Assembly: GCA_001001485.1 (NCBI GenBank)
Contig: LCKO01000006.1
Location: 4,350 to 68,349, forward strand
Direction: 5' to 3'
Length of the DNA: 64,000 nucleotides
Source: Candidatus Collierbacteria bacterium GW2011_GWB2_45_17
GTDB taxonomy: Bacteria; Patescibacteriota; Microgenomatia; UBA1400; MFAQ01
How positions within the stretch are numbered: the first letter of the stretch is position 1; each line of letters begins with the position of its first letter. Below the pieces are notes generated by a model. That model made no database searches and was not told the origin of the DNA. It saw only the letters and a program-made list of their open reading frames with translations. Below are positions 1,298 to 48,525 of this stretch, one piece after another. The position numbers were made by a program, and so were the translations under genes.

Positions 1298-2878
1298 TTA
1301 GGCGTTTTCGCCATGTTGGCCCAGCTGTTTGGGTGAGAAGTCCATCATATGGCCCAGGAAACGCCAGCCGGCCATGAAGAGGAATTTGATGTCGTCCAGA
1401 TGCCTGATTTCCTTTACCTTACGAAGCATGAATTTGGGGCTTAAGAAGGATTTATAAAGATCTTGGGTGAGTTCCAAGACTTGTTTCTCCGTCAGAGGGG
1501 ATTTCATGACCGGCTTGCGCATGTCGTAGTCATCGTAGTCCTCGGAGAGAAGCCATCCTTCCTTCTTGCACTCTTTCCAAAGAGGCGTTCCCGGGTAAGG
1601 AATAACCACGGTGGCTTGGAGAGTGTCGACAAAACCCTTATCAAAACATTTCTTGGCCAGATCGACCGTTTTCCTGGCGTCTTCGTAAGTTTCCCAAGGA
1701 TAGCCCATCATGATGGTCAAGTGAGGATCCAGACCGCCCTTCTTGGCCATGCGGACACCTTCTTCGATCTGGTCAACCTTGACACCCTTATCCAGGTGAT
1801 CTAAGGTGTATTGATTGGCGGACTCCATACCGTAGAGAATGAAACGGAAGTTGGCTTTTCCCATTAGATCATAATGTTCTTGTTTGAGGGCGTTAAGGCG
1901 CATGTTACAACCAAAAACAACTTTTTTATGATAGCCGGAATCAATTAACAAATTACAAAAATCAATTAGCGGTTTACCGATCATAAAAGTGCCGGCATCG
2001 TCGAAGATTTCTTTGACGTGGTACTTATCGACGACGTGCTTGACTTCGTCAAATAGTCTTTGGGCCGTAAATCGGCGGTAGGAGCCGATGGGATTGATGG
2101 TATGGTCCCAGACACAGAAGGTACAGCGATTCCACCAGCAGTCGCGACCGGAGTACATGTAGGTGGCCGGGGTGTATTTGTAGTTACCGTTGTAGACGGC
2201 ATAGAGTTCCCACTTAGTAAGGTCTCGATCCACAAAAGGAAGAGTGTTCAGATCGTGTCCGATACTGGGTTTACCGGAATTGGCATAAACTGACGTTCCC
2301 TTTCTTTTGATGGTTTCGACCGGTTTTTGTTTAATTCTCTTATCCCCGATTCTCCACCAGACGCCACCTTCCAGCTCGGCGCCTTTGGATAAGTGATCCA
2401 GCAAATTGACGATAACAAAGTCGTAGTCACCTCCGGTGATGAGGTAGTCTACATTACTATTGTCCATCATTTCTTCCGGAGCAAAAGTGACATGATCCCC
2501 TACCCAGACGAGAAGGAGTTTGGGGAGCTCCTTTTTGAGGATCTTGGTCAGTTGCCAGTGTTTTTTGACGATCGGGGATTTGGTCTCGACCATGAGGACA
2601 TCAGGCTTGAACCTCTTAATTTCTTTTAGCCACTGCTCAAAAGTTTGTTCCTCCGCGATGCCATCCATCCATTTCACCTGGTAGCCATGAGCCTTCGCAT
2701 TGGAGGCGGCATAAGCCGGAACCATGGGGTAGATGAAGGTCTTGGCGTTGAAGTACTGAAACTGACGATTTTGGGAGAGTAACATGATCCCTTTGTCTGA
2801 GGGAGTGGGTGGATAACCGACAACAAGCCTTAAAGAGTGTTTGGTGCGGGGTGGTTGGTGCGAAGTGTTTTTAATCAT
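1298..2878 (-). CDS. B12-binding-domain radical SAM protein (class B-like)
   Basis: 526 aa. The N-terminus is a Rossmann-like B12-binding region ('PMVPAYAASNAKAHGYQVKWMDG…KPDVLMVETK'). A cysteine triad 'CWWNRCTFC' (Cx4Cx2C) follows ~110 residues later, as in a radical-SAM core. Confidence 0.65.
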   Translation of the reverse strand: MIKNTSHQPPRTKHSLRLVVGYPPTPSDKGIMLLSQNRQFQYFNAKTFIYPMVPAYAASNAKAHGYQVKWMDGIAEEQTFEQWLKEIKRFKPDVLMVETKSPIVKKHWQLTKILKKELPKLLLVWVGDHVTFAPEEMMDNSNVDYLITGGDYDFVIVNLLDHLSKGAELEGGVWWRIGDKRIKQKPVETIKRKGTSVYANSGKPSIGHDLNTLPFVDRDLTKWELYAVYNGNYKYTPATYMYSGRDCWWNRCTFCVWDHTINPIGSYRRFTAQRLFDEVKHVVDKYHVKEIFDDAGTFMIGKPLIDFCNLLIDSGYHKKVVFGCNMRLNALKQEHYDLMGKANFRFILYGMESANQYTLDHLDKGVKVDQIEEGVRMAKKGGLDPHLTIMMGYPWETYEDARKTVDLAKKCFDKGFVDTLQATVVIPYPGTPLWKECKKEGWLLSEDYDDYDMRKPVMKSPLTEKQVLELTQDLYKSFLSPKFMLRKVKEIRHLDDIKFLFMAGWRFLGHMMDFSPKQLGQHGENA

Positions 2879-3230
2879 GATTTTTTAAATATTTTATTAA
2901 AGCGTTGATGGAAATTATCAGTTTTTCGTATTTTGACTTGATAATTTCATAATCAGCGAGATCAATGTATTTTAGTTTACTGCATATTCGCAACAAAACT
3001 ATTGTCTCCCCTATTGAGCCCCTTGAAATAACAAGAAAGTGTCTGAAATCTTTATGTGTGTCTCTGTAAAAACCCTCGGCGATATTGGCACAGACTGAGA
3101 CTGTTGCTCTAGATATTTGAGATGATAGCCCAAATTTTTCCACCGCGGGTAGGCTCTTGATTACCGAGTATATCTGCAAAGTAATTTCTTCTGCTTCATT
3201 AAGAATTTTGATATCTTCTAAGGTTTTCAT
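2871..3230 (-). CDS. four-helix-bundle protein (TIGR02436-like, the family commonly encoded in 23S rRNA intervening sequences)
   Basis: 119 aa. Characteristic 'ANIAEGFYRDTHKDFRHFLVISRGSIGE' core. Confidence 0.8.
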   Translation of the reverse strand: MKTLEDIKILNEAEEITLQIYSVIKSLPAVEKFGLSSQISRATVSVCANIAEGFYRDTHKDFRHFLVISRGSIGETIVLLRICSKLKYIDLADYEIIKSKYEKLIISINALIKYLKNHD

Positions 3231-3266
3231 TGCACTATTAACTTTGCACTAAGCACTACGCACTAT

Positions 3267-3533
3267 TCAGGGAAAGAGTTGTTTTCCAGTTTTGTCTTTA
3301 ATTATGATAGCAAGAACGGGGCAAGAACGTGCGGCCTCCATAACAGCATCGAGAGTGTCGCCATCAGGATCGCTAATGATGGCCTTGCCATCTGAGTCTC
3401 GTAGCAAAAAGGTCAGGGGGGCGGCGATGGAACAGGGACCGGCGGAGATACATTTATCGAGATCAACGGTGATGGTGTGGCCATCTTTGCGGACGGCTTC
3501 GCTTTTTGATTCGGTGGTGGTTACCTTGGACAT
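3267..3533 (-). CDS. small mono-cluster [4Fe-4S] ferredoxin
   Basis: 88 aa. 'ITVDLDKCISAGPCSIAAP…DSDGKA…AARSCPVLAI' fits the divergent Fer4 (Cx5C…CP) ferredoxin pattern. Confidence 0.65.
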   Translation of the reverse strand: MSKVTTTESKSEAVRKDGHTITVDLDKCISAGPCSIAAPLTFLLRDSDGKAIISDPDGDTLDAVMEAARSCPVLAIIIKDKTGKQLFP

Positions 3534-3567
3534 TGGTGTTTTATTTTAGCAGGAAAAGGTTAGGTAT

Positions 3568-3608
3568 GAGATTGCCACGACCCGCCATAGCGGGCCTCGC
3601 AATGACGG
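3568..3608. repeat. module A repeat copy (divergent) within the six-frame ORF upstream of the HigB-like start
   Basis: 'gagattgccacgacccgccatagcgggcctcgcaatgacgg'. Confidence 0.65.
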
Positions 3609-3649
3609 TGATGATTGATTTCGGTTATTGTTTGGTATTAAATGGAGGT

Positions 3650-3988
3650 ATGGATAAATTTAAAGTATTCAGCTATGAAGATCGTAGCGGAAAAGATTTG
3701 ATTATCAAATCAGTTAAAAGGTTTACAAAATCTCAAAAATCAAAATATATTCGTCAAACTCTATTTCTAAGAAACTATGGTATCACTCGGAACAATCCCG
3801 TACTTAAAAAAATCGTAGGGACTCGAATGTGGGAGATGAGAAGCCTAGGAAAAGACAATCTTCGAATCTTTTGTGCTGAATACAGAGATGGTGTTGTTTT
3901 GCTACATGTTTTTATTAAAAAAACGCAAAAGACCAGTTCTGGCGACTTGTTACTTGCCCAAAGAAGACTTTCAGAACTACTTGACTGA
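3650..3988 (+). CDS. HigB-like / phage Gp49-like (RelE superfamily) toxin
   Basis: The six-frame ORF opens at 3506 inside a copy of repeat module A, but the likely start is the ATG at 3650, preceded by GGAGG. The sequence 'MDKFKVFSYEDRSGKDLI…MWEMRS…NLRIFCAEYRDGVVLLHVFIKKTQKT' fits the Gp49 family, and an XRE antitoxin gene follows immediately. Confidence 0.55.
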   Translation: MDKFKVFSYEDRSGKDLIIKSVKRFTKSQKSKYIRQTLFLRNYGITRNNPVLKKIVGTRMWEMRSLGKDNLRIFCAEYRDGVVLLHVFIKKTQKTSSGDLLLAQRRLSELLD

Positions 3989-5463: not shown

Positions 5464-6186
5464 TTACCGTATCTTGAGCCTAAATAAATAACTTGGGTTG
5501 ATTTTTGAGGCTATTTTCCTCCTAATAAATTTGATTTTCACTCTCTGAATTGGAGTCAATTTTGCACTCGAACCCTTATTTTCATAATAAAAGCGAGAAA
5601 TCAATGCCATACTGTCCGCTAGTTCAACATCGGGATCACGATTTCCCTTTGTAACGTAACTTAATGAGGTTACGTGTTCGCGGTATGTAGGACTATTCGA
5701 TTGATGATAATGATGAGCTCTTAATAGAAAGATATCTTGGTTCGTGTCTGATTCGGCTATTATTCTTCCATATAACTTTGTCTTCGACAAATTAAGTTTG
5801 AATTTTCTTAAAAGGGATCTGTAAGAGCGATTTAAAATCGTGTTAAGTTCCCAATTTCTTTTTTGGGCATGTTCCTTATTTACTATAATTGTAACAAAAC
5901 AGATCTTTTCATCGTTAATTACATTTATCAATTCTGACCAAAAATTTGTTTCCGCAACAGGGTCTTTCAGGGAAGCAAAAGGGCCGGCTTTACGGAATAT
6001 GTCACGCCCGTGAAGGATTATTTCAGAGTCACCGAAATATTTATCTTTTATTTTTGAGAGTGATCGATAAATCTTGTTTCTTCTTGATTCCTCGATAATA
6101 ACTCCACAAAGGATAAAATATTTTGATGGATGTCCATACGAAGCCTTGCCCGATTCATCAATAGAGAGTAGTTTGTATTTGTTCAT
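5464..6186 (-). CDS. DUF3800-family protein
   Basis: The N-terminus 'YKLLSIDESGKAS…YFILCGVII' matches the DUF3800 'iDESG' signature. Confidence 0.55.
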   Translation of the reverse strand: MNKYKLLSIDESGKASYGHPSKYFILCGVIIEESRRNKIYRSLSKIKDKYFGDSEIILHGRDIFRKAGPFASLKDPVAETNFWSELINVINDEKICFVTIIVNKEHAQKRNWELNTILNRSYRSLLRKFKLNLSKTKLYGRIIAESDTNQDIFLLRAHHYHQSNSPTYREHVTSLSYVTKGNRDPDVELADSMALISRFYYENKGSSAKLTPIQRVKIKFIRRKIASKINPSYLFRLKIR

Positions 6187-7007
6187 TTATAGCGGAGTTT
6201 GAGATGGGGGTCACCCTCCCAGTGGTCGGATCCATCATCGTCGTAGTAGTGAAGAATATAAGTGCGGTAAATAATGGCTAGGTAATCGATAAAGAAATTT
6301 TGAACCGAAGAAAGTCCAACATTGCTCATAAAATTGCTGGAAATCTCGACTGGTGATTCATAGATCCGCTTAAAACCAACCCTGTTCGCGATGGTGAGCA
6401 TCTCGAGGTCAAAAGCCCAACGCTTGACGATCATCCTGGGGAGGACTTTGACCAGGACGGATCGTTTAAAAACTTTGAGGCCGGTTTGAGTATCTGAAAC
6501 ATTCAAACCAAAAAAGAATCTGGTGGCTCTTTGAACGATATGCGAGAGAATTTTCCTCTGCCAAGGATACTTGACCTTGCTGGCGTGATGCCGCTTACTT
6601 CCGATGATAATATCGGCATCGTACCACTTCATGTGTTCGAGAGCCAAACCAATACCTTTGGCATTGAGGTCTGAACCGGCATCAATAAAAGCGATTATTC
6701 CCCCCTTGGCTCTCGCCATACCAAAACGAACCGCATAACCCTTACCTTTGTTTTGTTTATATGAATAAACCTTGATATCTTGCCGACGCGTTTTTTTGGC
6801 TAGATGATAGGTTTTGTCCCGAGGTGATATACGACCATCAACCACGCAGAGAATCTCGTAGGGGCGATTTAATTGACTCAGGTAGTACTTAATTACAGTA
6901 AGATCGGTGACGATGGTTTTGCAGTTATAGGCAGGAACAATCACCGAAAGAAGCGAAGGATCAACTTTTCCGATTTTTATCTTTTTTCTTTTGGTGACCT
7001 TAGGCAT
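6183..7007 (-). CDS. glycosyltransferase family 2 (polyprenyl-phosphate sugar transferase-like)
   Basis: 'LSVIVPAYNCKTIV…YEILCVVDG' GT2 signature. 4-bp overlap with the downstream gene. Confidence 0.75.
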   Translation of the reverse strand: MPKVTKRKKIKIGKVDPSLLSVIVPAYNCKTIVTDLTVIKYYLSQLNRPYEILCVVDGRISPRDKTYHLAKKTRRQDIKVYSYKQNKGKGYAVRFGMARAKGGIIAFIDAGSDLNAKGIGLALEHMKWYDADIIIGSKRHHASKVKYPWQRKILSHIVQRATRFFFGLNVSDTQTGLKVFKRSVLVKVLPRMIVKRWAFDLEMLTIANRVGFKRIYESPVEISSNFMSNVGLSSVQNFFIDYLAIIYRTYILHYYDDDGSDHWEGDPHLKLRYK

Positions 7008-44797: not shown

Positions 44798-45913
44798 ATG
44801 AAACGAACGTATTTATTCTTGTTGTCGGCCTTGTTTACGTTGGCAATATGGATTCCTTTTGGACTAAAAATGAAACTTCCCCTTTGGGGTTTGGACTTCT
44901 CCGAAGGGACTAAAATCCTTTGGCAAAATTACGACGGACCAAACTACTTGATTGTAGAAAAAACTTGGTACGACAAAGAAATGATTAAGACTTCGTTCTC
45001 GACTACTGAACCGACCGAGTATTTCCCGGCACACTTTCCTCTTTATCCGGCGGTAATTTCTGTATTTGATCCATTTCTAAAAGGTCCAAGCGCCATGCTC
45101 TTAGCCACTCTTATTGGATCCGTTCTCTGTTTCTTGATGTTTTATAAATATTTATTGGAATTTAAATTAAGTGTTGATCCGTTCTGGCTGACTTTAGTAT
45201 TTATGATTTTTCCCGCCAGATGGTTGGCTCTAAGAGGGGTGGGCTCACCCGAACCATGGTTTATTTTGTTTATTCTGGCTAGTCTTTTTTACTTTAAAAA
45301 AGAGAAATACATACTGGCAGGAATATTTGGAGCTTTAGCTCAACTAACAAAAAGCCCGGCAGTGATACTATTGGCCGCTTACGGAATATTTGCTATTGTT
45401 CAGTCAATTAAAGAGAAAAAGATTCAGTGGAAATATTGGCCTCTGCTACTTCAGGCTTTAGCTGTCGTTGGTTTATTTTTGTTTTTCAAAATCAGAACCG
45501 ATGACTTATTGGCTTATCTCCATAGTGGTGATAATATTCATCTTTTTTGGCCACCGTTTAGTGTGTTTGCTCCAAAGGGGCAAGTATGGGTGGGAAATTT
45601 CTGGCTGGAAGATATTATCTGGACCTGGTTGGTTTTCGGAATTGGAATTATGAAACTCAAAGAAAAGAAATTGGATATTGAGTATTACTTTGCCGGATTA
45701 TTTTTTCTGTCGACTCTCTTTATTGCTCATAGGGATATCAGTAGATATATTTTACCCGCGACTCCATTAGTTCTTATCGGTTGGGATAATCTGGTACACA
45801 AAAAAGAATTCAAATTAATTGCTTGCTTACTGATATTCCCGATCTTTCTGTTTACTTGGAACTTCTTGCTGAACAACACCGCCCCAATAGCCGATTGGGC
45901 ACCATATTTGTGA
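44798..45913 (+). CDS. polytopic membrane protein (GT-C/DUF2029-like)
   Basis: 371 aa, multi-TM. Only large plus-strand gene within the locus, divergent from the GT2 gene at 44062. Confidence 0.4.
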   Translation: MKRTYLFLLSALFTLAIWIPFGLKMKLPLWGLDFSEGTKILWQNYDGPNYLIVEKTWYDKEMIKTSFSTTEPTEYFPAHFPLYPAVISVFDPFLKGPSAMLLATLIGSVLCFLMFYKYLLEFKLSVDPFWLTLVFMIFPARWLALRGVGSPEPWFILFILASLFYFKKEKYILAGIFGALAQLTKSPAVILLAAYGIFAIVQSIKEKKIQWKYWPLLLQALAVVGLFLFFKIRTDDLLAYLHSGDNIHLFWPPFSVFAPKGQVWVGNFWLEDIIWTWLVFGIGIMKLKEKKLDIEYYFAGLFFLSTLFIAHRDISRYILPATPLVLIGWDNLVHKKEFKLIACLLIFPIFLFTWNFLLNNTAPIADWAPYL

Positions 45914-45926
45914 AACAAATATGGAA

Positions 45927-45996
45927 AGAACTCAAGGAATCAAGGACACAAGAACTCAAGACAGGCAAAATATTAAACAAAAGAACTCAAGGCAAT
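45927..45996. repeat. AGAACTCAAG oligo-repeat block (module B), left flank of the four-helix-bundle gene
   Basis: 'agaactcaaggaatcaaggacacaagaactcaagacagg…aagaactcaagg'. Confidence 0.8.
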
Positions 45997-46000
45997 TAAA

Positions 46001-46354
46001 GTGATAAGTACAAAGCAAAGACTGGAAGATAGATTGCCAATTTTATTACGGTCGGTCGTTCGATTGTGCAAAAAATATCAGACTGAATTAATTGCCAAAA
46101 GAATTATTCCACAGCTCGTCGCTTCAATCGGGTCGATTGGTGCAAACTATCAAGAGGCTACGGCCGCGATGAGTAAGAAGGACTTTGTTAAATGTCTTAA
46201 GATCGCACGAAAGGAAGCTCGAGAAAGTATCATTTGGTTAGAAGGAATGGACGAATTGTCTGATGGTGCAGATAAACAAATTCCAGAAATAACTCAAGAG
46301 GTAAAAGAGGTGAGTTATATTCTTACAAGTATTATCTCGAAAACTGAGTCTTAA
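46001..46354 (+). CDS. four-helix-bundle protein (TIGR02436-like)
   Basis: 'IGSIGANYQEATAAMSKKDFVKCLKIARKEARESIIWLE' core. Second copy of this family in the window. Confidence 0.8.
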   Translation: MISTKQRLEDRLPILLRSVVRLCKKYQTELIAKRIIPQLVASIGSIGANYQEATAAMSKKDFVKCLKIARKEARESIIWLEGMDELSDGADKQIPEITQEVKEVSYILTSIISKTES

Positions 46355-46366
46355 CCTTTTTCTTTA

Positions 46367-46409
46367 CTTGTCTTGAGTTCTAGATTCCTCGAGTTCTTGA
46401 GTTCTTATC
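46367..46409. repeat. module B block in inverted orientation, right flank of the four-helix-bundle gene
   Basis: 'cttgtcttgagttctagattcctcgagttcttgagttcttatc' is the reverse complement of the left-flank motif. Confidence 0.8.
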
Positions 46410-47583
46410 GCTTTTTCCAAATCACGAGGTTGTAGATGAACCAGTTGAGGGGGACGGTGATCGCGAAGACGGCGAGGACGAGGAAGAGGGTGCGGTATTG
46501 GTCACCGAATACTTGTGTACCGACGCCGATCACCAGGCTGGGCAGAACAATCCCCGAGACGACGGAGCTGAGATTGAAGGTGGTAAATTTTTTGACTAAG
46601 GTGGTACCCCAGATCAGCTTTTCGTTTTTGAAGGTCCAAAGGTTATTGAGAATAAAGTTGCTGATGATCGAAAATTCGGCGGCAAGGGCATTTGCTAATG
46701 TATTTCTAACCCCAACGACGCTGATCAAATTGCTAAGAAGCTTGGCAAAGATATCGAGGCCGACCTTGTTGATGACAAAGCCAAAAAGACCGATAGTGCC
46801 AAATTTGATAAACTTTTGGGTGGTGGAGTCGTTCCATCTGAGTAAAACAGCTGTTCTGAGAATATCTTTGGCTGTCTGCGGTTCAATCTTGGACTCACCC
46901 GTTTCTCTGAGGCCAAACTGTAAAGGGATTTCCTTAATCTTGGCACCTAATTGAATGGTCTTGTAAATAAACTCCAGTTTGTAGCCAAAACTTCTGGAAT
47001 ACAAATGATCCATGTCCATGGTGTCGACAAAGCCTTTGATACGGGTAGCCTTTAGGCCGGTGGTGGGGTCGGTAAGGCGGAAAAAGTTTTTGGTTGGAAA
47101 GAACATGAAAATCCTTGCAGCTAAGCCACCTACTTCACTAAAGAAAAGTCTCTTGAAACCCCAACCTTTGGGATTACTACCACCTTTGATCTTGCGGGAG
47201 CCCAAGACATAATCATAACCTTCATCAATAGCCTGAAGCATGATGGGGATGGTGGTGGGCGGGTGCTGAAAATCACTATCGAACTCGATGACTACATCGG
47301 CGTCGTGCTTACTCATAGCTCTTCTAAAACCCTTTACATAAGCTGCACCAATCCCCTCTTTTTTGGTTTCGATCAGAAGATCAAGATCTGGGTATTGCTT
47401 TTGTTTGTCTTGAATTATTTTCCAAGTACCATCTGGGGACTTGCCATCGACGTAGAGTAAAACACATTTCCAGTTGGAGATTTTGGGAAAGGTTTTGATA
47501 AAAAGATAATCGATCATCCTCGCAGTGTGCCCTGCTTCATTGTAAGTGGGGATGACAATGACGGCGACGGGGAGTTGCTTCAT
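46405..47583 (-). CDS. GT2 polyprenyl-phosphate glycosyltransferase fused to a C-terminal GtrA-like membrane domain
   Basis: N-terminal 'VAVIVIPTYNEAGH…' GT2 region. The C-terminal ~120 aa holds 4 TM helices of GtrA type ('FIKFGTIGLFGFVIN…'). Confidence 0.7.
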   Translation of the reverse strand: MKQLPVAVIVIPTYNEAGHTARMIDYLFIKTFPKISNWKCVLLYVDGKSPDGTWKIIQDKQKQYPDLDLLIETKKEGIGAAYVKGFRRAMSKHDADVVIEFDSDFQHPPTTIPIMLQAIDEGYDYVLGSRKIKGGSNPKGWGFKRLFFSEVGGLAARIFMFFPTKNFFRLTDPTTGLKATRIKGFVDTMDMDHLYSRSFGYKLEFIYKTIQLGAKIKEIPLQFGLRETGESKIEPQTAKDILRTAVLLRWNDSTTQKFIKFGTIGLFGFVINKVGLDIFAKLLSNLISVVGVRNTLANALAAEFSIISNFILNNLWTFKNEKLIWGTTLVKKFTTFNLSSVVSGIVLPSLVIGVGTQVFGDQYRTLFLVLAVFAITVPLNWFIYNLVIWKKR

Positions 47584-47586
47584 TGA

Positions 47587-47814
47587 TTATTTATCTTTGC
47601 AACAATCGCCACCGCAACAGTTATCGTTTTTTTCAGAAATTTCTTCACGTTTTCCGGTTTCGTCGTACCAGTAGAGTTTTTTTTCGTCCTCGCCGACAGT
47701 CTTGGTGTGGGATCCGTCACAAAAGGGTTGGTTTTTTGATAAGCCACACATACAGATATGTTTATCTCCTACCTGAACGGGAGTGTGGGCGGTTTTTTTT
47801 ATTAGTCTGGGCAT
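47587..47814 (-). CDS. CDGSH-type iron-sulfur domain protein
   Basis: 'CMCGLSKNQPFCDGSHTK' CDGSH motif. The six-frame ORF extends 12 codons further upstream into the module B block, so the start is taken at the Met of 'MPRLIKK'. Confidence 0.6.
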   Translation of the reverse strand: MPRLIKKTAHTPVQVGDKHICMCGLSKNQPFCDGSHTKTVGEDEKKLYWYDETGKREEISEKNDNCCGGDCCKDK

Positions 47815-47828
47815 GAGGATATTATATA

Positions 47829-47868
47829 GCTCAAGAACTCGAGAACTCAAGGAATCAAGAACTCAAGC
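47829..47868. repeat. module B block, intergenic between the CDGSH gene and trmD
   Basis: 'gctcaagaactcgagaactcaaggaatcaagaactcaagc'. Confidence 0.8.
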
Positions 47869-47880
47869 TATAATTGGAGT

Positions 47881-48525
47881 ATGAAGATTGATATTTTGAC
47901 TATATTCCCAGAAATGTTTGAGGGAGTGTTTAAAACCTCGATTATCGGCCGGGCGACAGGGACGAGGGTGGTGGACATCAAGGTTCACAATCTGCGCGAC
48001 TGGAGTGATGATAATTATAAGAGTGTGGACGATCGGCCTTTTGGGGGGGGCGCGGGCATGGTGATGAGAGTGGATGTGGTGGAGAGAGCAATTAAAGAAC
48101 TCAAGAACTCAAGAACTCAAGAACTCAAGACTAGGGTGATATTGATGGATACGAAGGGGAAAATGTACGACCAAAAAGTAGCCGAGAAGCTGAAACTCGA
48201 AGAACGCCTAATTTTGATTGCGCCCCATTTTGAAGGTATCGACCATCGGGTACATGAACACTTGGCGGATGAGGTTTATAGCATCGGGCCTTACGTCCTG
48301 AGTGGTGGAGAGCTACCGGTGATGGTGGTGGTGGACAGTCTTTGCCGCTTGTTGCCCGGGGTGCTGGGGAACTCCGAGTCGCTTAAAGAAGAGTCTTACA
48401 GTGAGGAAATGGAGATAGAGTACCCGCAATACACCAGACCGGCGGAGTACAAGGGTTGGAAGGTGCCGGAGGTACTTCTCTCGGGTGATCACAAAAAAAT
48501 TGAGGCGTGGAGGAAGAAGCGGTAA
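47881..48525 (+). CDS. trmD: tRNA (guanine37-N1)-methyltransferase
   Basis: 'MKIDILTIFPEMFEG…SIGPYVLSGGELPVMVVVDSLCRLLPGVLGN' matches TrmD. An in-frame (AAGAACTC)x4 insertion encodes 'KELKNSRTQELKT' at 48095-48131. Confidence 0.85.
   Translation: MKIDILTIFPEMFEGVFKTSIIGRATGTRVVDIKVHNLRDWSDDNYKSVDDRPFGGGAGMVMRVDVVERAIKELKNSRTQELKTRVILMDTKGKMYDQKVAEKLKLEERLILIAPHFEGIDHRVHEHLADEVYSIGPYVLSGGELPVMVVVDSLCRLLPGVLGNSESLKEESYSEEMEIEYPQYTRPAEYKGWKVPEVLLSGDHKKIEAWRKKR
48095..48131. repeat. module B tandem octamer repeat inside trmD
   Basis: 'aagaactcaagaactcaagaactcaagaactcaagac'. Confidence 0.85.

Follow-up and report, generated by a model that had tools for sequence, protein, structure and literature searches.

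Four-helix-bundle (4HB) proteins, also annotated as 'S23 ribosomal proteins', form a large family whose link to intervening sequences (IVSs) of rRNA genes has been an oddity since the 1990s. To our knowledge, no cellular function has been assigned to the family outside the Avd proteins of diversity-generating retroelements (DGRs). In the window analyzed here, a stretch of 64,000 nucleotides of Candidatus Collierbacteria DNA, a gene of this family lies between two protein-coding genes and is bracketed by inverted repeats, which raises the question of what kind of element it belongs to. Very probably, positions 45926-46406 are a resident copy of a widespread, compact, discrete and dispensable type of cassette, the free-standing counterpart of ORF-bearing rRNA IVSs. 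Such a cassette consists of a 4HB gene of the S23p/Avd fold and two inverted arms of ∼4.5 tandem 7-8-nt units with an AAACAA/AAGACA-type tail. It would have entered long ago between two convergent glycosylation genes and been inherited vertically since, with arms and protein under purifying selection, and it would have been cleanly lost at least three times.

The four-helix-bundle gene and its inverted arms

The 4HB gene (46001-46354, plus strand, GTG start, 117 aa) matched PF05635 (23S_rRNA_IVP) with 47.5 bits (cutoff 33.8) and TIGR02436 with 65 bits (cutoff 24) in profile searches. No rRNA or tRNA gene was found in the 64-kb window using Rfam at gathering thresholds and ARAGORN, in agreement with the first-pass annotation, which had described an IVS-type gene outside any rRNA gene. 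The AF2 monomer model of the protein had a pLDDT of 95.7, with helices at residues 8-25, 32-54, 59-86 and 93-116. Foldseek matched this model to 2RLD (TM 0.82, 33% identity), 2GSC (TM 0.77) and Avd (4DWL, TM 0.70), and phmmer connected the protein to 2RLD with E = 2.4e-9. The gene is preceded by that of a 371-aa membrane protein with weak likeness to PMT-type (GT-C) glycosyltransferases (44798-45913, plus strand) and followed by a GT2-GtrA gene (46405-47583, minus strand), the neighbors that the annotation had named. Among the called genes, no transposase or recombinase gene was present within or beside the cassette, and no promoter-like or terminator-like site was found within 45600-46400.

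The claim that the gene sits on a ∼480-bp cassette bounded by inverted repeats was borne out, with arms of 44 nt each that are 82% complementary. They are not imperfect repeats of a generic kind, as had been supposed: in each arm, four AAGAACTC-type octamers and AAGA make up a 36-nt array, after which comes an AAGACA-type tail. The left arm (45926-45969, plus strand) reads AAGAACTC AAGGAATC AAGGACAC AAGAACTC AAGA (36 nt, 4.5 octamers) and continues into the tail CAGGCAAA. The right arm (46363-46406, minus strand), read on the minus strand, is AAGAACTC AAGAACTC GAGGAATC TAGAACTC AAGA plus CAAGTAAA, and it overlaps with the GT2-GtrA stop codon at its outer end. An extra single unit, AAAGAACTCAAGG (45980-45992, plus strand), carries AAGG 9 nt before the GTG start and could pair alternatively with 46362-46381 (inverted pair of 20 nt, 90%). 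At the left junction of the cassette, across the stop codon of the 371-aa gene, lies a short hairpin, CCATATTTGT-GAA-ACAAATATGG (45902-45924, plus strand), which is a 10-nt inverted repeat with 100% complementarity. When inspected by eye, the loci L017 and L020 had a palindrome of other sequence in its place, and the empty-site loci described below had none.

The inverted repeat was scored as the best local alignment between the 200 nt upstream of an ORF and the reverse complement of the 200 nt downstream of it. The cassette scored 24, compared to 8.0 ± 1.1 for shuffled sequences (z = 14.7), which was the top score among the 58 ORFs of the window, the runner-up reaching 12. The complementary termini can form a long terminal stem around the ORF, as in IVSs, and when 45915-46415 was folded as RNA, a check that the annotation had recommended, the MFE and centroid structures both contained this stem (z = -4.7 vs shuffles). 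A lack of pairing beyond the short units had been named as an outcome that would refute the proposal; this outcome essentially applies, as the pairing comprises little more than AGAACTCA-type units and 6-12 nt of tail.

A second, canonical 4HB gene is present at 2871-3230 (minus strand, 119 aa; PF05635 107.9 bits, TIGR02436 104.7 bits). It is embedded in an operon, where it immediately precedes a B12/radical-SAM gene. Its earlier description as unflanked holds insofar as no inverted partner was found for it. However, it is not entirely bare, because a tandem array of TAGTGCN heptamers (3231-3268, minus strand; TAGTGCG TAGTGCT TAGTGCA AAGTTAA TAGTGCA) lies directly before its ATG.

Inheritance, loss and distribution of the cassette

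Contigs L001-L016 are near-identical, represent a single Rifle groundwater population and hold no comparative information. At greater distance the cassette was found at the exact same junction down to 59% identity of the 4HB protein (L027), and at 53% identity (L030) it occupied another position in the same kind of gene cluster. At this locus the cassette has been inherited vertically over this range and is not recently mobile. The left arm was 86-88% identical in orthologues in which the third codon positions of the 4HB gene were merely 46-51% identical, and the right arm was 79-93% identical in orthologues of the AAGAACTC clade. Arms at 86-93% identity, against third codon positions at 46-51%, are therefore under selection. 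The 4HB protein is under purifying selection as well, with 90% amino-acid vs 51% third-position identity to L017. In Collierbacteria, a lineage of the candidate phyla radiation (CPR), the cassette is thus an old acquisition passed on by vertical descent, with arms far better conserved than synonymous sites. The arm unit of L027 is AAAAACTC, and both arms shift from AAGAACTC to AAAAACTC at the level of the clade; this shift could equally be AT drift.

The search for empty sites in related genomes, also recommended by the annotation, was positive. In L227, L228 and L229 the 371-aa gene abuts the GT2-GtrA gene at the exact cassette junction, cleanly and with the remaining synteny intact. These three loci are nested among cassette-bearing lineages, and by parsimony the empty sites represent secondary losses. 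Such sporadic presence and absence among relatives is the behavior of a dispensable element and is also seen in IVSs. Replacement of the L227 region from an L228-like donor was considered as a source of the joint absence of cassette and arrays described below. It was not supported, as the GT2-GtrA and TrmD proteins of L227 group with the window lineage (in this comparison the GT2-GtrA protein of L072 was left out).

The same architecture was found around most related genes in other bacteria. Among 74 metagenomic homologues, 33-49% identical, 56 (76%) had inverted flanks with a score of at least 15, compared to 4 of 104 control ORFs (4%) from the same loci (Mann-Whitney p = 1e-25). The flanks were mostly ∼4.5 tandem heptamers, and the repeat unit was specific to the cassette and not to the genome. 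Over the ∼470 nt between the outer arm ends, L163 and L176 were ∼90% identical while their flanks were unrelated, and in four further cassette pairs the likeness likewise stopped at the outer arm ends. The cassettes are thus discrete units with terminal inverted repeats at their boundaries, as in transposons and MITEs, and to this extent the mobile-element architecture proposed in the annotation was upheld. The same arms flank a distant canonical homologue in a Phycisphaerae genome (L076), where argH and thiL are the neighboring genes; its protein is 23% identical to that of the window, and its unit is nearly the same (AAGAACAC for AAGAACTC). No link to an rRNA gene was found, and none of 80 homologue loci lay inside one. 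Several called N-termini of homologues (MTNDQ..., MSNDK...) turned out to be translated heptamer arrays. Close inverted pairs of arrays without an ORF were observed in Chthoniobacterales and Acidobacteriota (L091, L105, L108, L115 and L117). In a limited literature search we could not find a description of the repeat-armed 4HB cassette: in open-access text no paper joined 4HB, S23 or IVS-protein terms with inverted or tandem repeats, and the 16-mer of the array was absent from the text searched.

Solo arrays and related dispersed repeats

The unit of the arms also occurs outside the cassette. The core AGAACTCAAG had 11 matches in the window, all of them inside 45927-48129, with a chance expectation of 0.2. 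A solo array in the intergenic spacer of the CDGSH gene and trmD (47830-47867, plus strand) brackets, together with the right arm, the minus-strand GT2-GtrA-CDGSH unit. It was present in the cassette-bearing orthologues L017, L020 and L072 and not detected in L024; among the empty-site loci it was absent from L227 and L228 and present in L229. A further solo array, a perfect (AAGAACTC)x4 + AAGA (48095-48130, plus strand), lies in frame within trmD and encodes KELKNSRTQELK. At this position the TrmD proteins of L227 and L228 have ADLKTDESK and KDLKTPETK instead; the array takes the place of a loop about as long as itself and adds no large insert. In L006, positions 47868-48130 are deleted. In CPR genomes, solo arrays of 36 nt (12 codons) were found in frame in surface loops of housekeeping proteins, among them TrmD, aminoacyl-tRNA synthetases, TopA and UvrA. 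All four arrays of the window are sense-oriented to an adjacent gene. Arrays that lie within ORFs are mostly on the sense strand (44 vs 5 antisense), but this bias was dropped as evidence, because the antisense strand of AAGAACTC arrays has TGA in every frame and the bias is automatic. Neither in the window nor in 18 loci of other phyla that carry arrays did the arms or arrays match a known RNA family at Rfam gathering thresholds or with ARAGORN.

In-frame insertion into protein genes is also known from Rickettsia palindromic elements and from MITE-like repeats. The solo 36-nt arrays resemble the Rickettsia elements in lying in frame in housekeeping proteins, and differ from them in being tandem octamers instead of palindromes and in being far shorter. 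Cyanobacterial STRRs are dispersed short tandem heptamers. In the array units, as in dispersed short tandem repeats, 7-8-nt units are repeated in tandem, in many copies, between and within genes and sometimes in opposite-strand pairs. The result ties this class of unexplained repeats to a specific gene family.

TAACTGA repeats are known from Beggiatoaceae, Cyanobacteria and Bacteroidetes and are similar to the arrays in having two to six tandem 7-nt units, a mostly intergenic location and a patchy distribution across phyla (PMC4679880). They lie immediately before start codons, in the forward direction, and unlike the arms they are described as direct arrays without an inverted partner; where that text matches helix-bundle, S23 or intervening, a 4HB gene beside the repeats is not mentioned (PMC4679880). 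Also similar in layout are the paired sites described in Geobacter metallireducens as 'global regulator binding sites' (Aklujkar et al., 2009; PMC2700814), with three to five tandem units of 8 nt, 8-9 nt and 7 nt in classes 1, 2 and 3, respectively. They form opposite-strand pairs whose spacing varies, and they are numerous, both in intergenic positions and inside genes (PMC2700814). Unlike the cassette, these pairs have no 4HB gene reported between them, and many flank insertions of the IS110 family or the IS481 family (ISGme8, ISGme9) or plain intergenic spacers (PMC2700814). Their units are GC-rich (PMC2700814) and differ in sequence from those of the cassette, to which any relationship would be conjectural.

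Possible functions of the arms

The cassette has several features in common with rRNA IVSs (Coxiella burnetii helix 45, Leptospira, and 16S and 23S rRNA of CPR bacteria). It shares the PF05635/S23p family, its ORF lies between complementary termini able to form a long stem, and its presence is sporadic, with vertical persistence after acquisition being possible (PMC4990558, PMC11270868). The Coxiella IVS, an element of 428-444 nt, contains an S23p ORF, and its terminal stem of 28 bp is cut by RNase III (PMC4990558), and the ∼480-nt cassette belongs to the same size class; rRNA insertions of CPR bacteria contain 23S_rRNA_IVP ORFs (PMC11270868). In contrast to rRNA IVSs, the cassette is located between two protein-coding genes, its stem is 82% complementary where theirs are nearly perfectly so, and its arms are phased 7-8-nt arrays of ∼4.5 units, a feature that was not seen in one published description of an IVS. 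The Coxiella S23p protein is reported to be decaying, whereas the protein of the cassette is clearly maintained by purifying selection.

By analogy with these elements, we infer co-transcription, in vivo pairing of the arms and RNase cleavage, as well as any role of the 4HB protein, in the following scheme. The cassette, which has no promoter-like site of its own, would be read through from the upstream 371-aa gene, and in the read-through transcript the arms would pair to a stem of ∼40 bp. The stem would be a substrate for a double-strand-specific RNase of the RNase III type, as in rRNA IVSs, and its cleavage would release the 4HB message from the host transcript; it is proposed that the insertion would therefore be tolerated. 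In many family members the stem may also cover the start region and gate translation of the 4HB gene. The arms would be the cis-elements that define the unit. As a whole, we regard this mechanism as plausible but somewhat short of probable; in Coxiella RNase III cleavage is established, whereas for the cassette it is a proposal by analogy. The 363 arm mismatches had no G-U wobble bias, with 66 changes giving a wobble in the sense transcript vs 59 of the opposite kind (p = 0.59), and A/T transversions dominated. A pairing signature specific to RNA was not found, and RNase III processing is therefore still a step that we infer. Nor did stem bases covary in the AAGAACTC clade: cognate left and right arms were no more alike than non-cognate ones, and each arm resembled its orthologue more closely than it did its partner. 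Two further observations count against the stem. A stem needs no internal periodicity, yet the count of ∼4.5 units is conserved, and unpaired solo arrays persist nearby, one of them in trmD, and are gone with the cassette in two of the three empty-site genomes.

These observations are of interest for an alternative that we consider possible although unlikely, in which the arms are protein-binding arrays and not a stem. Five DAG/AAA cores with a spacing of 7-8 nt (4.5 units) would be phased for a pentameric 4HB ring on RNA or DNA, like TRAP or HutP, and the protein would bind its own arms, for autoregulation or cassette maintenance, as well as nearby solo arrays such as those at trmD. Five chains are present in each of the closest solved relatives, 2RLD and 2GSC, and homopentamers are reported for Xcc0516 and Avd, Avd being a positively charged barrel with an RNA-binding element. 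Array length was 36 nt in 22 of the 27 arrays called in orthologous loci and in 22 of 57 arrays of low-GC genomes. The heptamer cassettes had a median array of 30 nt and 4.5 units in 18 of 33 cases, and therefore conserve the number of units and not the length, so that the count holds across 7-nt and 8-nt units. The cores of the units are conserved, with arm mismatches falling in variable positions, and the specificity of the unit for the cassette rather than the genome is in line with this reading. Solo arrays of the cassette's own unit were nearby in 9 of 39 loci, compared to 1 of 195 for foreign arms, and cassette and solo arrays are jointly absent from L227 and L228. However, L229 retains solo arrays without a cassette at the site, and a 4HB gene was within a few kb in only 2 of 115 AAGAACTC-array loci of other genomes. 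The unit type also does not track the protein (L076 with 23% identity has nearly the same unit, L027 with 59% has AAAAACTC), and no S23p-type protein is known to bind nucleic acids in a sequence-specific manner. The likeness to Avd is one of fold; Avd is pentameric and its positively charged barrel binds a defined RNA element, and in contrast to the cassette the 4HB homologues on phage contigs are mostly without arms (8 of 10). A DGR at this locus was rejected, as no reverse transcriptase was present among the called genes within 10 kb on either side (L010-L012), and the Avd model NF033474 did not match the 46001-46354 protein and was far below its cutoff for the 2871-3230 copy.

We consider it improbable that the cassette is a non-autonomous mobile element whose arms act on the DNA level as terminal inverted repeats, with the 4HB gene as cargo or accessory factor. 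Movement or excision would then be due to a recombinase or transposase encoded elsewhere, or to hairpin or slippage processes, and the element would have left solo arrays as footprints or one-ended products, or would insert by preference at such arrays. Sharp boundaries of likeness at the outer arm ends in unrelated contexts, clean presence and absence at one junction, and arm mismatches without strand asymmetry are consistent with such an element, and the ORF-less inverted pairs resemble MITE-like derivatives. In Geobacter metallireducens, opposite-strand pairs of tandem-octanucleotide sites often occur with IS110-family or IS481-family elements (ISGme8, ISGme9) at fixed distance (PMC2700814). 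Against this reading, inspection by eye showed no target-site duplication where the cassettes of the window, L163 and L176 meet their flanks, and the cassette has no transposase or recombinase gene in or beside it. Its very long vertical inheritance, with strong purifying selection on arms and protein, would be unusual for a decaying non-autonomous element. Under a last reading there is no cassette at all, and an ordinary gene is flanked by generic dispersed 36-nt repeats. Their inverted orientation would come from two convergent units (the 5' side of the 4HB gene and the 3' UTR of GT2-GtrA), each repeat being sense-oriented to one of them. This reading could draw on the arrays standing alone at 47830-47867, at 48095-48130 and in many genomes in which no 4HB gene is close by, and on the sense orientation of all four window arrays, but it is largely refuted and highly improbable given the family-wide excess of inverted flanks, a right arm that in L076 and L030 is not in the 3' UTR of a convergent gene, the end of cassette likeness at the arms and the joint loss of arms and gene at empty sites.

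The preferred reading, if a discrete repeat-armed cassette is typical of the family, makes (AAGAACTC)4.5 a concrete cis-sequence for 4HB binding or RNase cutting. The result also flags repeat arrays that lie in frame inside essential CPR genes. As a speculation, to which we give little weight, pentamers of the S23p/Avd fold might be readers of five-fold phased tandem repeats, each cassette being a self-contained protein with cognate arrays that can seed satellite arrays in genes and spacers nearby. STRR, TAACTGA repeats, Geobacter sites and the KNSRTQEL-coding CPR arrays would then be cis-elements of a single system, with rRNA IVSs as those cassettes that chanced to land in rRNA genes. If it is true that the typical 4HB family member is a discrete cassette with phased repeat arms, present in many lineages and mostly outside rRNA genes, the rRNA IVS would be a special case of a general element.

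A four-helix-bundle gene between inverted octamer arrays

The gene at 46001-46354 (plus strand, GTG start) encodes a four-helix-bundle (4HB) protein of 117 aa, which matched PF05635 with 47.5 bits (cutoff 33.8) and TIGR02436 with 65 bits (cutoff 24). Its left neighbor (44798-45913, plus strand) encodes a 371-aa membrane protein with a weak likeness to PMT-type (GT-C) glycosyltransferases, and its right neighbor is a convergent GT2-GtrA gene (46405-47583, minus strand). A repeat search showed that the 4HB gene is enclosed by an inverted pair of 44-nt arms (45926-45969 and 46363-46406) that are 82% complementary. As the first-pass annotation had anticipated, a terminal stem pairing these flanks was present in both the MFE and the centroid RNA structures of 45915-46415 (z = -4.7). 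The inverted-flank score, defined as the best local alignment of the 200 nt upstream with the reverse complement of the 200 nt downstream, was 24 for the cassette, compared to 8.0 ± 1.1 for shuffles and 12 for the runner-up among the 58 ORFs of the window. Given the gene matches, the arm complementarity, the fold and the flank score, the arrangement of a gene between inverted arms is real. No rRNA or tRNA genes were found in the 64-kb window, in agreement with the earlier placement of the gene outside rRNA.

Both arms are tandem arrays of octamers. The left array reads AAGAACTC AAGGAATC AAGGACAC AAGAACTC AAGA on the plus strand, and the right array, read on the minus strand, AAGAACTC AAGAACTC GAGGAATC TAGAACTC AAGA; both are 36 nt long (4.5 units) and continue into an AAGACA-type tail. 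Two solo arrays, lacking an inverted partner, were present nearby: one of the cassette-arm unit type in the spacer 5′ of trmD (47830-47867), and a perfect (AAGAACTC)x4 + AAGA in frame within the essential gene trmD itself (48095-48130), where it encodes KELKNSRTQELK in a variable loop. The rest of the 64-kb window contained no further copies. One metagenome assembly (L006) fuses both direct arrays and lacks the first ∼72 trmD codons (window 47868-48130), which reflects either assembly collapse at the repeat or genuine recombination between the arrays in the population; several other contigs stop within the trmD array. A short perfect hairpin at 45902-45924 combines the 3′-terminal codons of the 371-aa gene with spacer sequence past its stop. 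It recurs at two orthologous loci (L017, ∼5935-5957; L020, ∼5940-5956) with a species-dependent sequence and preserved palindromy, is missing from the loci that lack the cassette, and may belong to the left cassette junction.

A second, canonical 4HB gene (2871-3230, minus strand) belongs to an operon, with a small ORF on one side and a B12/radical-SAM gene on the other. Its earlier description as unflanked holds insofar as no inverted partner or right arm was found, but a heptamer array (3231-3268, minus strand; TAGTGCG TAGTGCT TAGTGCA AAGTTAA TAGTGCA, consensus TAGTGCN) ends directly at its ATG. A Gp49-like (DUF891, PF05973) toxin-type ORF is present nearby at 3506-3988.

Conservation and empty sites at the junction

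Candidatus Collierbacteria is a lineage of the candidate phyla radiation (CPR), within the Microgenomates group. An identical 4HB protein was encoded on Rifle groundwater contigs of this lineage (GCA_001001635.1, GCA_003539025.1), which were near-identical to the window and therefore comparatively uninformative. In other species the same junction was occupied by 4HB homologues of 90, 80, 79, 67, and 60% identity, each with both arms. Across the orthologous loci 22 of 27 arrays were 36 nt long, and in the clade of 60-67% identity the unit on both arms was AAAAACTC. In L030 (53% identity) the 4HB gene lies within a co-directional glycosyltransferase operon, and the inverted array pair encloses it together with a 166-aa ORF. 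The 4HB coding sequences of the window and L017 were 79% identical, with 51% at third codon positions and 90% at the protein level, while the left and right arms were 88 and 93% identical; for L020 the arms were 86 and 79% identical and the third positions 46%. As protein and arms both exceed the third-position identity, the 4HB protein and both arms are under purifying selection.

A search for orthologues of the 371-aa neighbor yielded the empty sites that the first-pass annotation had suggested looking for, and three were retrieved with their context (L227, L228, and L229; 73, 69, and 63% identity of the neighbor). In all three the 371-aa and GT2-GtrA genes abut or overlap at their stop codons, the surrounding synteny is unchanged, and the 4HB gene and arms are absent from the junction. 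Neighbor-joining trees were computed for the 371-aa protein, for GT2-GtrA and for TrmD. The lineages without the cassette branched among those that have it, and the cassette was present in the deepest lineages (L024, L026, L027). The rank order of the 4HB identities was nearly that of the neighboring gene. The most parsimonious history is that the cassette was ancestral and was cleanly lost at least three times independently, although repeated gain at one site could also produce this pattern. The cassette at the window locus is an old resident.

The cassette-bearing species examined over the trmD stretch had a solo array at or in trmD. Both trmD arrays were missing in L227 and L228, whose TrmD loops read ADLKTDESK and KDLKTPETK, and both were retained in L229 despite the absence of the cassette. 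In place of the solo array 5′ of trmD, L227 carries a different palindromic element of ∼50 nt (..GAGATTGCCGCGCTCCGCTCGCAATGACG..; ∼6530-6640), which resembles small palindromes of the CPR loci L046 and L063. The spacer upstream of trmD seems to be a preferred site of small repeats.

Cassettes and arrays in other genomes

A 4HB alignment used as query against JGI metagenome contigs returned at least 568 confirmed relatives, of which the best 80 loci (33-49% identical) were analyzed. Among these, an inverted-flank score of at least 15 was reached by 56 of 74 4HB genes and by 4 of 104 control ORFs of the same loci (Mann-Whitney p = 1e-25). The arms were again tandem arrays, with a dominant period of 7 (22 left and 34 right arms at a strict threshold, compared to 1 of 115 control windows) and with units that varied between cassettes (AAATTTC, GAAATCC, AAGATAC, CAAATCA, TAATGAC, and others). 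Usually four units were followed by AAACAA; extra units often ran into the first codons, which explains the odd N-termini of called 4HB proteins. Well-defined arrays in this set had a median length of 30 nt (interquartile range 28-31) and 18 of 33 contained 4.5 units, so that unit number, not length, is the trait shared with the window octamers. Two contigs (L191, L218) each carried two cassettes with different units, which makes the units cassette-specific; paired 4HB genes 1-2 kb apart were observed on these and on L148, L149, L184, and L222. The design extends to another phylum: in a Phycisphaerae genome (L076) a canonical 4HB gene lies between argH and thiL, co-directional with both, with arms of (AAGAACAC)n / AAGAACTC type. 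None of the best 80 homologue loci was in an rRNA gene, and on viral contigs only 2 of 10 scorable 4HB homologues had such arms. One cassette (L159, 3341-3863) lies ∼50 nt from a tmRNA gene and another (L175) beside two tRNA genes; a preference for stable-RNA neighborhoods is possible.

Among the best 80 loci, 153 pairs of 4HB genes were 65-88% identical at the nucleotide level. In all but one of the listed pairs no blastn similarity was found between flanks 250-1500 nt away, some contigs being too short for both flanks. L163 and L176 were ∼90% identical across the whole cassette, measured between the outer arm ends (∼470 nt), with background directly outside, and L165/L206, L175/L180, L206/L224, and L210/L215 showed the same pattern. 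No target-site duplication was seen. Similarity that ends at the arms, between unrelated flanks, argues for a unit placed in different contexts, and the earlier proposal of a discrete IVS-like cassette bounded by inverted repeats is borne out. Dispersal, as implied by the proposed mobile character, is supported by these copies in unrelated contexts; recent mobility is not supported at the window locus, where the cassette is long established.

When GTDB species genomes were scanned for exact matches to three AAGAACTC-type units, at least 115 loci were returned. Among the matches listed, Collierbacteria and Woesebacteria contributed many in each genome; the others came from Acidobacteriota, Chthoniobacterales, Planctomycetes, Bacteroidota, and further groups, and from MAGs that are labeled Pseudomonadales but look CPR-like in sequence. 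A 4HB gene within a few kb was present at only 2 of the 115 array loci listed. Conversely, 9 of 39 cassette loci had an extra solo copy of their own arm type within the surrounding few kb, compared to 1 of 195 tests with arms borrowed from other cassettes. Among the matches listed from low-GC genomes, 22 of 57 arrays were exactly 36 nt and 32 of 64 were in frame within housekeeping ORFs. CPR-like examples (L057, L075, L125, L132, L110, L142) have an in-frame 36-nt AAGAACTC array in aminoacyl-tRNA synthetase, TopA, UvrA-like, and TrmD genes, and the in-frame arrays listed from CPR-like genomes always encode a phase of the cyclic peptide KNSRTQEL. Chthoniobacterales and Acidobacteriota (L091, L105, L108, L115, L117) contained close inverted octamer-array pairs, ∼25-60 nt apart, with no ORF between them; these are possibly cassette derivatives, analogous to ORF-less IVSs or MITEs. 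Acidobacteriota MAGs (L044, L049-L051, L065, L069-L071, L087, L096, L131, L137) carried dozens of AAGAACTC/GAGAACTC arrays per genome, each preceding a conserved hairpin (..AGAATGGAACAGGAGGACGGC...GCCGTCGTCTTCCGGATT) that matched no Rfam family. These Acidobacteriota repeats have the octamer array in common with the cassette and look like a multicopy element of their own.

Role of the arms and relation to known systems

The cassette protein is by every testable criterion a PF05635/TIGR02436 family member. Its model was a confident four-helix bundle (pLDDT 95.7), closest to BT_0352 (2RLD, TM 0.82), Xcc0516 (2GSC), and Avd (4DWL, TM 0.70). Xcc0516 and Avd are reported to be pentamers, and Avd to bind a defined RNA element. 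A role of the cassette as a DGR component was rejected.

RNase III cleaves the terminal stem of those rRNA intervening sequences (IVSs) that carry a 4HB-family ORF (PMC4990558). Because of this analogy, and because no promoter-like or terminator-like sites were found between the upstream gene and the cassette, the likeliest role of the arms, tentatively, would be to pair in the transcript, with cleavage of the stem as in rRNA IVSs. Against an RNA stem, arm mismatches showed no wobble asymmetry (66 vs. 59) and cognate arms within a clade were not more alike than non-cognate ones; a stem also leaves the phased units, the conserved unit number, and the selected solo arrays unexplained. The main alternative, possible if somewhat doubtful, is that a pentameric 4HB ring binds each array through five phased cores, which would explain the periodicity and unit count, the cassette-specific units with their local satellite arrays, and the joint loss of cassette and solo arrays in L227 and L228, but the unit type does not follow the divergence of the proteins (L076 vs. 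the window; L027). That the arms are DNA-level terminal inverted repeats of a mobile element is unlikely: the sharp boundaries and the ORF-less array pairs fit, but transposase and target-site duplication are lacking.

The cassette is built like an rRNA IVS, but it is not one since it lies outside rRNA genes, the defining location. Cyanobacterial STRR repeats are a third near match to the arrays, besides two published descriptions that are among the nearest. These are the paired tandem octa- and heptanucleotides termed global regulator sites in Geobacter metallireducens (PMC2700814) and the TAACTGA heptamers of Beggiatoaceae, Cyanobacteria, and Bacteroidetes (PMC4679880); the passages on these repeats contain no link to 4HB genes. 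In open-access text no account was found of 4HB genes forming cassettes whose arms are inverted tandem arrays, and an earlier description elsewhere is possible. The cassette architecture is family-wide, with strong controls, and turns rRNA IVSs into a special case; the arms are the first concrete candidate cis-elements for the 4HB family.
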